DNA from: a virus
Lineage: Duplodnaviria > Caudoviricetes
IMG/VR virus record: IMGVR_UViG_3300025689_000001
Location: 32,001 to 96,000 of that record
Reading direction: 5' to 3' (one strand)
Length of the DNA stretch: 64,000 bases
The notes under the pieces were generated by a model that was not told the DNA's origin, ran no database searches, and saw nothing but the letters and a program-made list of their open reading frames with translations. The position numbers were made by a program, and so were the translations under genes. Each line of letters starts with the position of its first letter. Within the stretch, counting starts at the first letter, position 1. Shown in pieces: positions 59,755-64,000 of the stretch.

Positions 59755-59783
59755 TTGACATTTGCTGTATATTGTGCTATAAT
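59755..59783 (+). promoter_or_regulatory. consensus sigma-A promoter (early type)
   Basis: TTGACA-17-TATAAT, TG extension, AT-rich UP element. Confidence 0.85.
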
Positions 59784-59861: not shown

Positions 59862-60371
59862 ATGACATTTGCAAACAAAATGTATCTTTACAAGTATTTC
59901 AAAGCTGTGGGAGCGGACGTTGTGGCTCTAGGTTTCCCTCTTTGCGGTTCTCACGATGTAGCGGTTATTCTGCTTTCAAAGTCCGACTTCATCGCTATTT
60001 CAGACGGTTACTTTGAAAAGCTGTCACCTGCTTGTAAGGACTTTATGCGTCACGTTATCAAGTCCAAAAAGACCGACAATCATTTCCGCTTTAGCTTTAA
60101 GGCTAAAGACCTGCAATTCCTTGCAATCAGTGAGGGCAATACAAACCTTGAACCTGTTTGCTCCGCTGATAGGTTTGAAGAAATCAAGACCGAAAATGCG
60201 GAGTTCCTGCATCAGAAAAACGCTGGATATGCTCTTGAAAGAGTTGTCTATGAAATGTTCGGTAGGGAGTGGAGTTGGAAGCATAAGGGCTGTGACCTGC
60301 AAGGCGTGGAACTGAATGGTGAGACTGTGAACATTGAAATCAAGTGGTTCAACGGTCAGGCAAAGAAGTGA
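59862..60371 (+). CDS. hypothetical protein
   Basis: ATG 59862 after GGAG; no TAG; ends TGA. Confidence 0.72.
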   Translation: MTFANKMYLYKYFKAVGADVVALGFPLCGSHDVAVILLSKSDFIAISDGYFEKLSPACKDFMRHVIKSKKTDNHFRFSFKAKDLQFLAISEGNTNLEPVCSADRFEEIKTENAEFLHQKNAGYALERVVYEMFGREWSWKHKGCDLQGVELNGETVNIEIKWFNGQAKK

Positions 60372-60454: not shown

Positions 60455-60697
60455 ATGAAAAATTTAACAATGGTGGAACTTATGCTCATGTGCCTTACTC
60501 CGCAGTTAGAAGTTGATAATGCTTGTCAGTATGTCAAGGCAGTATGTGAGATAGTAAACCGCACAGAACGTCTGACAAGAGAACAGCGGAATGTTATTAA
60601 GGGCTTTTTAGAAGAATGTCAGATGTGGCACAGCACAAAAGACAAGATGTGGCTTGAATCGGCAATAGACCATTTGAACACATATATAAACGCATAA
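60455..60697 (+). CDS. hypothetical protein
   Basis: AAAGGA RBS; MKNLTMVELMLMCL... Confidence 0.7.
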   Translation: MKNLTMVELMLMCLTPQLEVDNACQYVKAVCEIVNRTERLTREQRNVIKGFLEECQMWHSTKDKMWLESAIDHLNTYINA

Positions 60698-60700
60698 AGG

Positions 60701-60727
60701 GAAGCGGTCGAAAGACCGCTTTCTCTT
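60701..60727 (+). terminator. intrinsic terminator
   Basis: AAGCGGTC-GAAA-GACCGCTTTTC. Confidence 0.8.
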
Positions 60728-60790
60728 AACATTTTGTTCCCACACCACACCAACAAGTAAATCAATTAACTTAAAGAAAGAGGTATCATT

Positions 60791-61333
60791 ATGAATATGG
60801 TTAAATTAAACAACAAGCTCACAGCACAGGTTATCAGCTTTACGGAGGTTATGCAGTCATATCAGGGAATAGAACAGGCAAACAGTTTTTACACATATCA
60901 CAGAGAGAATGGAGCAGAAGTCCTTGATATTGACTTTAGACTAAAGGTCAATGACAATGGTCTGATAGTATCAATCAATAAGAGTTATGACAGAGACGCT
61001 ATTTCAGGCGGTCACTACACAGAGGACACACAGACAGAAGTTGATATAAACGCCCTTGAAACGTGGTTAGAAGATAACGGTATATATAGCAAACAGGCTC
61101 ACAGCATAGCAAACAGGCTTTTTAATACAGTTCTTTGTATTGCAATGTGGGAAGCAATGGAAACTGAATTTTATACAGCACTTTACACTGAATATCAAAA
61201 ATGTTCGTGTGAAACTGAAACGGCGGTTAAAATCTTACTTGAAAAGTTAACTGATTTTACAGACCGCTACTATGTGCAAAAAGTTTGGTTAGAAATTCAG
61301 AAAAATGAAGAAGGAATAAACAAACTTTTCTGA
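60791..61333 (+). CDS. hypothetical protein (180 aa)
   Basis: AAAGAGGT RBS; no TAG. Confidence 0.75.
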   Translation: MNMVKLNNKLTAQVISFTEVMQSYQGIEQANSFYTYHRENGAEVLDIDFRLKVNDNGLIVSINKSYDRDAISGGHYTEDTQTEVDINALETWLEDNGIYSKQAHSIANRLFNTVLCIAMWEAMETEFYTALYTEYQKCSCETETAVKILLEKLTDFTDRYYVQKVWLEIQKNEEGINKLF

Positions 61334-61339
61334 AAAATC

Positions 61340-61375
61340 GGGAACGGGATTGATAAAAAATCCCGTTCCTTTTTG
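61340..61375 (+). terminator. intrinsic terminator
   Basis: GGAACGGGATT...AATCCCGTTCCTTTTT. Confidence 0.8.
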
Positions 61376-61389
61376 TTTAGTCATACCCC

Positions 61390-61560
61390 GAACGGTGAAA
61401 AGTTATGAACAAAATGTGAATAAAGTTTTTTCATTTTACCAAACAATAACGGTGAAAAGTTGTGAACAAAATATGAACAAACATACCCCATTTCGTTCAT
61501 AGTTTGTTCATAAATTCTCACCGTTATAACGGTGAAAAGTTGTTACGAAATTATGAATAA
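61390..61560. repeat. palindromic intergenic repeat, copy A plus two half copies
   Basis: TCACCGTTATAACGGTGA perfect 18-bp palindrome at 61518-61535; half sites AACGGTGAAAAGTTRTGAAC at ~61391 and ~61448. Confidence 0.85.
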
Positions 61561-61574
61561 GTTAAAACTTTTTC

Positions 61575-61685
61575 CACTTTCACACGCTAAAGTGCTAAAC
61601 CCCTAAAGTGGTAAAGCGTTAAAGTGTACCCGCTTTAGCACGTTAAAGTGCTAAAATGTTTTTCCCACTTTACAGCGTTAAAGCG
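61575..61685. repeat. 8-bp-period (T)AAAG(T/C)G / C(A/G)CTTT repeat cluster
   Basis: GCTAAAGT GCTAAACC CCTAAAGT GGTAAAGC GTTAAAGT; three C(A/G)CTTT-N8-AAAG(T/C)G dyads. Confidence 0.8.
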
Positions 61686-61951
61686 AGCTGTGACCTGCAA
61701 GCTGTGACCTGTTAGCCACCCCTAACCTGTAAATCTTTAGCTGAGTTTGCGACCTGCTCCGAGCTGCTCCTGCTCCGTTATTTTGAACAGTTCCACCTCA
61801 TTTATTATAAATGTTTTTGTGGATTTTGCACAACAATATATTATTATATATATCTATATATAAATGTATAATACCCGTTGTGCATATTGTATATAAATCT
61901 ATTTGCAATTTCTATTTCTTTGTGTAATATGTAGAAAAATGTTATTATGAC

Positions 61952-61980
61952 TTGACAAACCCCTTTTGATGTGATATAAT
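61952..61980 (+). promoter_or_regulatory. consensus sigma-A promoter
   Basis: TTGACA-17-TATAAT. Confidence 0.85.
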
Positions 61981-62025
61981 ATATATAGTAAAGGGGATAA
62001 ACCCCTAAAGAAAGGACTTGATTAA

Positions 62026-62166
62026 ATGAAAAAGGTTAAATGGTATCGCTACACATTCGCAGACGGTTGTGTCTCTATTGTAAGAGGTTACAGCAGACAC
62101 GAACTCTCTATTATGGAGCGTGACCACGGCAAACTCATTTCCAAAGTGTTCGAGGGGTGGGCATAA
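62026..62166 (+). CDS. small hypothetical protein (46 aa, MKKVKWYRYTFADG...)
   Basis: GAAAGGA RBS downstream of a promoter; ends TAA. Confidence 0.7.
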   Translation: MKKVKWYRYTFADGCVSIVRGYSRHELSIMERDHGKLISKVFEGWA

Positions 62167-62344
62167 TGGACGGCAGAAAATGGTTGGGGTGGTGGATAGT
62201 CACCACTCCACAGGGCAAAGAGTACGCAACGGAATACTATGAGGGCGACACATACGACGAGGCTTAGCCGATGCAGTCGCCACATTTGGAGAGGGAACGA
62301 CAGTCAAAAGTGGGCCGCCGTTCGCAAGTATCAAGGGTGATTAA
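62166..62344 (+). pseudogene. small ORF with an apparent 1-nt frameshift near 62264
   Basis: ATG overlaps the upstream TAA; MDGRKWLGWW...YDEA then a shifted frame reads LADAVATFGEGTTVKSGPPFASIKGD-TAA. Confidence 0.4.
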
Positions 62345-62359
62345 GTTCACCCTTTTTAC

Positions 62360-62426
62360 TTATTCATATTTCGTTCACATATTCTTACCGTTATAACGGA
62401 AAAGAAATATGAACAGACTATGAACA
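62360..62426. repeat. palindromic intergenic repeat, copy B
   Basis: CCGTTATAACGG at 62388-62399 flanked by TTCAYA and TGAAC tandem boxes. Confidence 0.85.
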
Positions 62427-62489
62427 CTCATTCGTCAGGTTGCACAATTTCGCCGCCAGATTGTTGATAATCTTTTACACTCATAGGTA

Positions 62490-62518
62490 TTGACATTTAT
62501 ATTATATTGTGGTATAAT
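62490..62518 (+). promoter_or_regulatory. consensus sigma-A promoter
   Basis: TTGACA-17-TATAAT. Confidence 0.85.
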
Positions 62519-62607
62519 GGTTATAGTAAAGGAAAGGGAAAGGAACGTAAACACACCGTTGAAGCAGTTCGCCTTTACATTATATAATGAATAGGAGTTG
62601 TTTATTT

Positions 62608-62853
62608 ATGAACGCAATCACACAGGACATTCTTAATATCAAGGTGGAGAACATCAACTACGCACTCGGTCTTACTTCTAACAAGTATTTCATTCAGAAA
62701 GCATACGGCGGCTATCGTCTGTGCAAGACAACAAACAGTGCAGGCGGTTGTGCAGACATTACAGAGCGTATGACCAAAAAGGAACTTGCAAAAGTTCTTG
62801 ACGGTATTTATAATACCATTCGTGCAAGTGGACTTATGGCAACAGAAAAATGA
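62608..62853 (+). CDS. hypothetical protein
   Basis: AGGAG RBS; MNAITQDILNIKVENINYALG... Confidence 0.75.
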   Translation: MNAITQDILNIKVENINYALGLTSNKYFIQKAYGGYRLCKTTNSAGGCADITERMTKKELAKVLDGIYNTIRASGLMATEK

Positions 62854-62879
62854 CATCTTCAAAACACACTTCATTATAA

Positions 62880-62911
62880 AGACGGACGGCGGCAATAGTC
62901 GCCGTCTGTCG
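62880..62911 (+). terminator. hairpin/terminator
   Basis: GACGGACGGCGGC-AATA-GTCGCCGTCTGTC. Confidence 0.6.
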
Positions 62912-62975
62912 TTTACATTTTGTTCATAATTTCTCACCGTTATAACGGAAAAAACTTATTACGAAATTATGAACA
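62911..62975. repeat. palindromic intergenic repeat, copy C
   Basis: CCGTTATAACGG at 62937-62948 with flanking boxes. Confidence 0.85.
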
Positions 62976-63097
62976 AAGTGTTAAAAAAGTTTTTTTATTT
63001 TACAAATAAAAGTCTACCCACGTTTAGAAACTTTGCACAAATAAAAGTTACCGTGCCACAGGATTTTGTGCATTCATACAAAAATATTTCTACCCTA

Positions 63098-63125
63098 TTG
63101 ACAAATACCCATTATGTAGTATAAT
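63098..63125 (+). promoter_or_regulatory. sigma-A promoter
   Basis: TTGACA-16-TATAAT. Confidence 0.7.
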
Positions 63126-63173
63126 AATAGTATCAAAGGGATACACTCCCCCAACTGAAAGGACTTGATTTTG

Positions 63174-63551
63174 ATGAAAGAATTAACCAATGGAAACACC
63201 GCACATATCAATGAGTACACAAAGCGACTTTGCCAAATTCAAACAGATATGCTTGCAAGGTTAGAGGAACTAAAGCCGATACACTCCAAACTTGAAAGAC
63301 AGATACAAGAGGTTTTGCATTTACTTGAATTTGAAATGCTTAACGCGCCACAAAGAGCAAAGGCAGTCAAGCGGCTAACAGATTTAAGAAAAGAAAGACG
63401 TATTGTCAAACAGGAAATATATGATATAAATCAGGCACTTAAAACATTTACTTTTCACGCAGACAAACAGCCAAAATGGGAATATCAAATGCAGTACACA
63501 TACAGCACCGATACAGTCAAGGCTATTTTCGGAGAGGATAACGGCGAGTAA
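63174..63551 (+). CDS. hypothetical coiled-coil protein
   Basis: GAAAGGA RBS; no TAG. Confidence 0.75.
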   Translation: MKELTNGNTAHINEYTKRLCQIQTDMLARLEELKPIHSKLERQIQEVLHLLEFEMLNAPQRAKAVKRLTDLRKERRIVKQEIYDINQALKTFTFHADKQPKWEYQMQYTYSTDTVKAIFGEDNGE

Positions 63552-63563
63552 TCGCCGTTTTCT

Positions 63564-63628
63564 CTTAACATTTTGTTCACATTTTCTCACCGTTATAACG
63601 GGAAAGAAATATGAACAGACTATGAACA
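63564..63628. repeat. palindromic intergenic repeat, copy D
   Basis: CCGTTATAACGG at 63590-63601; right flank AAAGAAATATGAACAGACTATGAACA identical to copy B. Confidence 0.85.
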
Positions 63629-63681
63629 GGCAGTTGTGCAGATTGCACATAAAAAGAATAAAATTGTTGAAAATGTTTTAC

Positions 63682-63710
63682 TTGACTTTTGGCTTGAAAT
63701 GTGGTATTAT
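63682..63710 (+). promoter_or_regulatory. sigma-A promoter
   Basis: TTGACT-17-TATTAT with TG extension. Confidence 0.7.
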
Positions 63711-63767: not shown

Positions 63768-63935
63768 ATGAGAAGAAGATTAAACAAAAAGCATTTAGTG
63801 GAGTTCATCATCGGTGCAATGGGTTGGCTTTGCATTATATGGTTAGTAGCAAGTGTCATTGATACCGATTTACACAACACAACACCGAATCCGATTTATG
63901 CGGATTGGAATATATTTAATATCTTATTTAATTAA
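63768..63935 (+). CDS. small membrane protein
   Basis: GGAG RBS; basic N-terminus then a hydrophobic helix (FIIGAMGWLCIIWLVASVI). Confidence 0.7.
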   Translation: MRRRLNKKHLVEFIIGAMGWLCIIWLVASVIDTDLHNTTPNPIYADWNIFNILFN

Positions 63936-63951
63936 AAGGAGTTGTTTTATT

Positions 63952-64000
63952 ATGGTAATGGTAAGAAACAGAAAAGGCACATACGGACTGACAAAGGACG
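63952..64000 (+). CDS. hypothetical protein (partial, runs off the window)
   Basis: AAAGGAG RBS then ATG. Confidence 0.55.
   Translation, partial: MVMVRNRKGTYGLTKD

Follow-up and report, generated by a model that had tools for sequence, protein, structure and literature searches.

Introduction

In T4-type phages, indels and replacements are bounded by repeated joints, the PeSL motifs, and have been ascribed to homologous or site-specific recombination (PMC2839356, PMC4122927). Here we describe an array of small early genes with joints of a similar layout in an uncultured, large phage of gut or rumen Firmicutes. The window, by which we mean the whole 64,000-nucleotide stretch analysed, is G000:32001-96000, where G000 is a 122,745-bp virus record that is ~75% complete. 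The joints of the array carry an imperfect dyad of about 65 bp, hereafter the element, which is built around the 12-bp palindrome CCGTTATAACGG. On balance, we favour the reading that this dyad is a lineage-specific operator for a phage protein that would co-regulate all early promoters, combined with PeSL-like homologous recombination at the repeated joints.

The likeness to PeSL is twofold: composite joints of terminator and early promoter recur through a hyperplastic region of small ORFan genes, and in both systems the indels and replacements that separate relatives are bounded by these joints. However, the array described here has Firmicutes-type sigma-A promoters and does not belong to a T4-type myovirus, and it is thus an analogue rather than a member. 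It also adds the dyad (the 12-bp palindrome with boxes phased at 11 bp) between terminator and promoter, a site of which the PeSL papers (PMC2839356, PMC4122927) describe no counterpart, and it swaps the palindrome between sister lineages. The host-takeover module of phage SPO1 comprises ~12-13 kb of small, highly expressed early genes, many with host-toxic products, in operons that each have strong host-type promoters and ribosome-binding sites (PMC6873191). The present array is a similar block of small early genes with strong promoters, but there is no sequence similarity, and the cited account describes no repeated palindromic site per joint for SPO1 (PMC6873191).

Two further systems share with this array the presence of one motif at many promoters of a replicon and its absence elsewhere. 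SPBRE is repeated in the promoter regions of many SPbeta genes and was predicted in silico long before its binder MrpR, a tyrosine-recombinase fold re-used for DNA binding (PMC10516654); this enzyme-fold binder parallels the restriction-enzyme-like product of the first array gene, open reading frame 1 (ORF1), as a candidate here. SPBRE, however, is a motif of 15 bp that serves to keep up the lysogeny of a temperate phage, whereas the element is a 65-bp composite present once per cassette behind the terminator, with no integrase found in the four genomes searched (G000, G001, G002 and G004) and no sign of lysogeny. On plasmid RK2/RP4, the short palindromic operators of KorA and KorB stand at many strong promoters, and the repressors that bind them, encoded by the replicon itself, work cooperatively and over variable distance, with a burst of expression on cell entry followed by self-imposed shut-down (PMC2665229, PMC4889941, PMC11790492). 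KorA/KorB differs in being a plasmid system, and its proteins are unrelated as far as tested; a ParB-type protein was not identified in the phage. Finally, the comparison extends to integrons. In an integron, single-gene units, each closed by an imperfect palindrome, form an array whose content varies strongly between relatives. Variable cassette content between close relatives is found here too, but the array departs from integrons in four of the five traits compared (integrase, attC-type structure, promoterless cassettes and fixed crossover), with 18 consensus promoters for 17 sites where integrons have one common promoter, and with a site conserved in sequence where attC is conserved in structure and free in sequence. 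The array is a member of none of these systems.

A palindromic element recurs throughout the early region

The initial annotation, made from the letters of the window, had placed a palindromic core at 61521, 62388, 62937 and 63590 within a repeating unit of promoter, one to three small open reading frames, terminator and element. Both descriptions are accurate: the core CCGTTATAACGG occurs exactly at these positions (4 matches vs 0.04 expected by chance), and the unit, in which the promoter is of consensus type, is present in the window. Aligned with one another, the four copies form an imperfect dyad of ~65-73 bp. The annotation had also called for all copies to be mapped genome-wide; in G000 the core is exact in 15 copies and degenerate in two others, whose arms are normal (genome 98147 and 98940), all confined to genome 93521-106814, a 13.3-kb early region, with none elsewhere in the 122.7 kb. 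The window shows the array start only: past its end the array goes on for 11 kb with 13 more elements.

To describe the element we drew on metagenomes, in which one pattern scan gave 70 stretches, ~54 of them arrays with two or more sites. These metagenome arrays hold 359 exact cores, every one oriented like its promoters. Copy statistics were calculated from 379 pooled element copies, 321 of them unique. Over these, all 12 core positions carry ~2 bits, equal to the promoter hexamers, while the 8-nt spacers next to the core and the arms vary. On each side of the palindrome, the variable spacer is followed by heptamer boxes (RTTCAYA or TGTAAYA) at 11-bp spacing, two per side and two or three on the promoter side; read toward the centre, the half-arm consensus is RTTCAYA - 4 nt - GTTCAYA or TGTAAYA - 8 nt - CCGTTA. 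Since the boxes are 11 bp apart, they would lie on one face of the helix. The heptamers presumably also have some likeness to DnaA boxes, which we take as a lead only. Tandem TTCAYA-N5-TTCAYA boxes, which the annotation had noted as flanks, number 7 in the window vs 0.39 expected (6 of the 7 in the array region), but the right arm is not the simple mirror that it had described: 74% of left arms have TTCAYA as their inner box, and 54% of right arms have GTAAY. The proposed half elements were borne out, with right halves at 61391 and 61446 and a coreless left arm at 60726-60742; the site at ~59729 is a degenerate remnant only.

An element of this kind might have no function of its own and hitch-hike in a duplicated joint, kept uniform by gene conversion only. 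The joints do recombine, and promoters, A/T tract and 5' untranslated regions (5'UTRs) are repeated as well. Conversion, however, would homogenise neighbouring positions too, and the 321 unique copies, those next to unrelated cassettes included, have 12 invariant positions beside free spacers and degenerate arms. Gene conversion alone would not leave such an invariant island, and we give this explanation very little credence.

The arms also speak to how the site is read. Arm complementarity within one element is 0.542 vs 0.526 for shuffled partners, so that compensatory co-variation is almost nil; this argues that the site is not read as an attC-like hairpin. A search of Rfam returned no RNA family match, only sub-threshold noise from the palindromes. 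Judged from these patterns, the dyad is most likely a putative protein-docking site that would be read on duplex DNA. The annotation had offered a protein-binding array as one of two possibilities, and this coincides with the reading towards which we lean. A promoter hidden inside the element was considered and rejected, as the distance from a box to the core TATAAC is 12 or 23 nt, which is the wrong spacing.

The features of the window that bear on the array are the following (coordinates are those of the window).

59755..59783, plus strand: TTGACA-17-TGnTATAAT, first of the early promoters, located where the array and the leftward structural genes diverge
59862..60371, plus strand: ORF1, 169 aa, first array gene, restriction-endonuclease-like, candidate partner of the palindrome
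60455..60697, plus strand: small early ORF, 80 aa, no known family
60704..60742, plus strand: terminator hairpin, then coreless left arm (TTAACA-N5-TTCCCA), a remnant half element
60791..61333, plus strand: early ORF, 180 aa, ORFan
61340..61370, plus strand: terminator hairpin
61391..61481, plus strand: right-half elements in tandem, at 61391-61420 and 61446-61481, each with AACGG, 8 nt and a pair of TRTGAAY boxes
61496..61557, no strand assigned: element copy 1, core 61521-61532
61565..61950, no strand assigned: insert between element 1 and its promoter, with GCTAAAGTG and GAGCTGTGACCTG repeats and an AT-rich stretch; not part of the dyad
61952..61980, plus strand: consensus extended -10 promoter
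62026..62267, plus strand: two small early ORFs, 46 aa and ~33-36 aa
62333..62354, plus strand: terminator hairpin
62363..62424, no strand assigned: element copy 2, core 62388-62399
62490..62518, plus strand: consensus extended -10 promoter
62608..62853, plus strand: early ORF, 81 aa, ORFan, with homologues in 15 element-bearing arrays
62881..62910, plus strand: terminator hairpin
62911..62974, no strand assigned: element copy 3, core 62937-62948
63098..63125, plus strand: consensus promoter with a 16-nt spacer
63174..63551, plus strand: early ORF, 125 aa, mostly helical, ORFan
63540..63559, plus strand: terminator hairpin
63562..63629, no strand assigned: element copy 4, core 63590-63601
63682..63710, plus strand: promoter, 10/12 consensus positions, TG-extended
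63768..64000, plus strand: next cassette, a 55-aa membrane-like ORF followed by an ORF running off the window

Element copies lie between terminators and early promoters

The first early promoter stands at the point of divergence from the structural genes, which run leftward, and the GC skew turns at ~59.5 kb of the window. Over the early 15 kb of G000 there are 18 promoters that match 11 or 12 of 12 consensus positions, all on the plus strand and with conserved 5'UTRs and ribosome-binding sites. In the pooled sample, a GC-rich perfect hairpin lies at most 82 nt upstream in 252 of 321 unique junctions (3/275 in the control), and a consensus promoter starts within 135 nt downstream in 256 of 321. 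On the way to the promoter, the promoter-side boxes are followed by the conserved A/T tract GTTAAATGAAAAAATTTT and then by the -35 of a consensus extended -10 sigma-A promoter. The distance from core to -35 is not uniformly distributed but peaks at 57 (36 copies), 68 (75) and 79 bp (21), then at ~90, 103 and 116; the step between the first three corresponds to a single 11-bp box. Of the 16 G000 copies that are followed by a promoter, 9 have one of these three spacings (57, 68 or 79 bp) between the start of the core and the -35.

The array ORFs contain 0 in-frame TAG in 3,336 codons and none stops at TAG, whereas the late genes of the phage, which presumably recodes TAG, have 127 in-frame TAGs among 14,496 codons. 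Translation of the array ORFs can therefore precede any code switch, as early genes require, and judged by their codons they are true early genes.

Some early promoters (window 62434-62489 and 63633-63680, and genome 98.2 and 100.4 kb) are without the A/T tract and carry upstream an inverted pair, TTGCACAA/TTGTGCAA, together with TTGTTGAAAATG. This motif is widespread in the phage group (G002, L023, L027 and L033) and may be a second operator class.

Relatives carry other palindromes at the same position

Judged by TerL, the closest relatives in culture are large siphoviruses of Firmicutes, at 37-43% identity. The array region gave no blastn match to cultured phages, and Geobacillus virus E3 has no comparable array upstream of TerL. 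The exact element returned two single, chance-like matches only from IMG/VR, and single-protein scans with two array proteins retrieved no relatives. A TerL fragment, on the other hand, retrieved 27 related viral contigs at 46-88% identity. In these the packaging genes are syntenic up to the array, and beyond that point matches are limited to snippets of promoter, UP-tract and UTR.

The core CCGTTATAACGG is absent from G002 (186 kb, 100% complete), G003, G004 and G005, and G001 has a single copy, at its cut edge. G002 shares the promoter array and the A/T tract with G000, and at the equivalent place it has GGCCCGGGCC 18 times, with GTTAGT-N4-ACTAAC 17 times, 10 of the 17 exactly 25 bp from the -35. 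Other relatives carry TGCCCGGGCA, TTCCATGGAA or TGTAAACGATTACA, and part of them keep the TRTGAAY boxes, while L028-30 have half elements very like those of G000. Since the layout is shared and the palindromes differ, the layout is a trait of the group and the palindrome is lineage-specific. Altogether, the early regions of this group of large Firmicutes phages with TAG recoding appear to be assembled from standard parts, in the order terminator, lineage-specific palindrome, phased boxes, UP-like tract and consensus promoter.

Two further observations concern the relatives. The early array of G002 spans both contig ends (L036, G002:168001-186457, and L037, G002:1-2000). Upstream of TerL in L023, L027 and L033, the joint repeats consist of two TRTGAAY boxes, GCGGCGGCAC and TGTAATCGTTTACA, and we take the 14-mer found there to resemble a Firmicutes catabolite-responsive element, as a lead only.

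The phased boxes, and possibly the core, could instead recruit a host OmpR-type winged-helix response regulator or another host protein, which would couple early expression to host physiology or titrate the factor. The OmpR/PhoP-box match that the annotation had pointed out holds at the level of the pattern only, a hexamer-N5-hexamer with an 11-bp period, which resembles OmpR-family sites, e.g. those of YycF/WalR (PMC5405149). More than half of the boxes, however, read TTCATA, which is off the published hexamers. The boxes are also spread more widely through the phage group than the core, and at time zero only host proteins or proteins coinjected with the DNA are present. Against a host factor, equally close relatives use quite different palindromes at the same position, which is more readily explained by a phage protein that co-evolves with its site than by a conserved host factor. 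A host protein as the reader of the site seems to us quite improbable.

Candidate binding proteins

In the operator reading, a lineage-specific phage protein would bind the core as a dimer, and the bound dimer would nucleate cooperative binding along the phased boxes. In this way the ~18 early promoters could be switched together, with shut-off as the favoured outcome, or the strong early units could be insulated after their products have built up. Recombination at the joints would then be a by-product. Most array proteins are ORFans, and the candidate binders would be ORF1 or the winged-helix paralogues encoded in the array.

ORF1 has E126, D145 and E159-I-K161 invariant in 8 homologues at 29-76% identity to it. 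The protein has no Pfam, PHROG or Protein Data Bank (PDB) sequence match; every one of the annotated Atlas neighbours shown is a type II restriction enzyme (ThaI 0.90, Bsp6I 0.88, PvuII 0.87, HinfI 0.80), and at scores of 0.80-0.90 these resemblances are leads only. Strong profile matches to ORF1 (E <= 1e-46) are restricted to 12 loci with CCGTT-type elements or half elements, and G002 and G003 have a remote homologue only (E ~3e-3; hhalign 1.6e-4).

The winged-helix family has three members of 129-131 aa, two of them in the array. An AlphaFold2 model (pLDDT 79) consists of a long helix followed by H67-74, H83-95, E99-106 and E113-119, that is a helix-turn-helix and then a beta-hairpin wing. 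Its top Foldseek matches are nearly all winged-helix DNA-binding domains (PadR, Fur/PerR, CodY and RTP), the best of them with a probability near 1 and E-values of only 0.02-0.1. The gene adjoins a PcfJ-like gene in the longer element-bearing arrays that reach the distal half.

Several observations weigh against an operator, or against these candidates as its readers. ORF1 subtypes that share an identical core are only 28-35% identical, and the conservation of catalytic-type residues points to an enzyme more than to a repressor. Between arrays with the same core, the winged-helix proteins have diverged about as much (36-42%) as they have from G002 (33-40%). The proposed direction of regulation is conjecture. 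A consensus promoter that has an UP-like tract needs no activator, and the site is centred ~95 bp upstream of the transcription start, which is far for simple occlusion. Extra DNA separates element and promoter in 7 of the 16 G000 copies with a downstream promoter, and all four window copies have such inserts (431, 102, 161 and 92 bp); two of the seven inserts hold a second repeat family (GAGCTGTGACCTG, GCTAAAGTG) and AT-rich DNA. The link of the element to the upstream terminator is as tight as its link to the promoter, and it could serve the end of the unit as a roadblock or insulator, and the 11-bp ladder of distances could stem merely from gain or loss of 11-bp box units. Finally, the half-site centres are only 6 bp apart, which is unusual for helix-turn-helix dimers.

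Cassette turnover and the position of the seams

The 332 cassettes of 54 arrays fall into 112 families. Their order is largely collinear (11-4-12-14-3-5-17-1-7-0-10-28-6-2-13-15-20-8-21-27-18-9), and arrays differ by presence or absence of whole cassettes, with few families (19 and 49) transposed. Relatives with 88% TerL identity, or with a flanking gene that is 88-94% identical, share almost no cassette ORFs or have quite different sets. One phage with an 88% identical flanking gene and a 77% identical ORF1 has the same element and a wholly different cassette set, which indicates that content turns over quickly. The comparison of cassettes among relatives proposed in the annotation thus gave variable content but a largely collinear order.

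Ungapped average identity profiles were blurred by indels, and seams were instead mapped by pairwise change-points and by a three-way analysis of a 'recombinant against two parents'. Pairwise change-points spread from -46 to +101 around the core. The three-way analysis gave 26 supported triples representing ~12 adjacency types, with switch intervals from -58 to +59. The annotation had proposed testing whether breakpoints fall in the core, and for the most part they do not: the core can be included in only 4 of the 26 triples (2-3 of the ~12 adjacency types), and two perfectly supported switches lie outside the element, at -58..-49 and +54..+59. Gain and loss seams lie in the element-bearing joints, and in several clean three-way cases the left arm tracks the upstream cassette and the right arm the downstream cassette. 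The recombinase that the annotation had suggested looking for was not found: no gene for a tyrosine recombinase (PF00589), a serine recombinase (Resolvase) or Y1_Tnp was detected in G000 (75% complete), G001, G002 or G004, a search that took in neither the missing quarter of G000 nor a 184.6-kb element-bearing metagenome contig. Scattered switches, arms that do not co-vary and the lack of a recombinase in the genomes searched together fit general recombination in a short conserved joint, and they do not fit a strand exchange fixed at one point of the core or the reading of a folded hairpin. Comparison of the arrays shows the 17 repeated joints to be the putative homology for general recombination that would delete, insert or swap whole cassettes between related phages.

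The same data bear on integron-like site-specific recombination, the other possibility raised in the annotation, in which a dedicated recombinase would swap strands inside the core and move cassettes. The core-plus-arms anatomy, whole-cassette presence or absence with a few transpositions, the arms that follow their neighbouring cassettes and the four switch intervals that take in the core are what it would predict. What survives of the proposal is that cassette content varies with seams in the joints; against it stand the collinear order, the scattered switches that mostly exclude the core, the absence of a recombinase from the searched genomes and of hairpin co-variation, and cassettes that have their own promoters. 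In addition, the PcfJ-like array protein looks GNAT-like and not recombinase-like. We therefore regard site-specific recombination of this type as very improbable.

An alternative that does involve an array protein is that the palindrome is a target cut or nicked by ORF1, with the breaks starting recombination or recombination-dependent replication and thereby leading co-infecting phages to exchange cassettes; this would be a homing-like counterpart of the integron that needs no integrase. The E...D...ExK residues of ORF1 are invariant across subtypes that are 28-35% identical, as in an active enzyme, and the annotated Atlas neighbours shown for it are small type II enzymes, which act as dimers on short palindromes and cut them. 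ORF1 is found together with CCGTT-type elements, and its gene is the first to be expressed; however, identical cores go with very different ORF1 subtypes, and the fold lacks a Pfam or PDB sequence match, with Atlas scores of 0.90 at most. Switch points fall within ~60 bp of the core and none lies beyond +59 though the analysis window reached +140, and conversion tracts starting at the core would leave such clustering. Such clustering is, however, just as much to be expected if the core is simply where joints share their longest run of identity. Furthermore, seventeen cuts in the phage's own DNA would be self-destructive, and DNA methyltransferases of three main families were not found in the 122.7 kb of G000. 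Overall, a nuclease target is unlikely. A dedicated cassette-exchange device, made of the palindrome and the restriction-enzyme-like ORF1 and with breaks repaired from co-infecting relatives, strikes us as distinctly unlikely; if true, early host-takeover and anti-defence genes would be traded as standard units by a nuclease and general recombination, with no integrase.

A second repeat family and neighbouring genes

A second repeat family, made of GAGCTGC/GAGCTGTGACCTG iterons, GCTAAAGTG repeats and AT-rich stretches, occurs at window 61565-61950, L007 5740-5970 and L008 1950-2140. It lies twice inside the array, and the array end has at least 9 iterons, a long CCCTTCC tract and AT-rich DNA beside an HTH_36 gene. 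The iteron region looks like a replication origin, and the insert at window 61565-61950 looks like an origin-like region or a second operator set; motifs related to this insert are present in G002.

These repeats bear on the idea that the element has its role not in transcription but in replication or partition, where it would form a centromere-like or origin-associated array, or in DNA entry, where its copies would be pause sites. The 17 high-information sites within 13 kb would suit such a role, as would the iterons and AT-rich stretches inside the array and at its end and the G002 contig that ends inside its array. The element, however, is present as one copy per transcription unit between terminator and promoter and forms no compact cluster, and the origin-like GAGCTGC repeats are a different motif that is shared with the dyad-less G002; ParB-type evidence was likewise not obtained. 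We consider a role of this kind highly improbable.

The HTH_36 winged-helix protein beyond the array end (115 aa, 27.3 bits, L008 3811-4158, minus strand, genome 108811-109158) has one in-frame TAG. Its orthologues are 79% identical in L043 and 59% identical in G002, and the recognition-helix residues differ (SRNTYDK vs AKNTYLA in G002). As a binder of the element it was rejected: it adjoins GAGCTGC iterons that are common to G002, which is without the palindrome, and it therefore more likely serves the iterons or the origin-like region.

Other genes of the region were noted in passing. A three-cassette block is duplicated (L007 9514-12175 and 12356-15720; genome 100.5-106.7 kb) and encodes an acidic-tailed winged-helix protein, a PcfJ-like protein with a GNAT-like C-terminal domain and a DEDD-type exonuclease-like protein (phrog_20187). 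The PcfJ-like protein was also considered as a recombinase or nuclease and set aside, as its model (pLDDT 91) is confident but bears no more than a middling likeness to GNAT proteins (Z 6-6.7). A PcfJ-like homologue of another array (L062 6446-7510) has an in-frame TAG at codon 159. Further on, at L008 5790-7208 (minus strand, genome 110790-112208), lies a gene for a BrxL-like Lon-type ATPase (BrxL_ATPase E 3.5e-90, plus BrxL_N), a phage-borne homologue of a BREX defence component.

Significance

The palindrome is a search tag with which early-gene arrays can be retrieved directly from metagenomes. The resulting catalogue of 332 cassettes comes from phages without a cultured host and covers early proteins that are small and highly expressed, the class to which host-takeover and anti-defence functions belong. 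The swapping of palindromes among sister lineages, as seen in their sequences, points to fast co-evolution of a putative regulator (or nuclease) with its ~17-40 sites. Once found, the binder would provide a new orthogonal protein/operator pair and the timing of the early-to-late switch that accompanies the code change in these phages.

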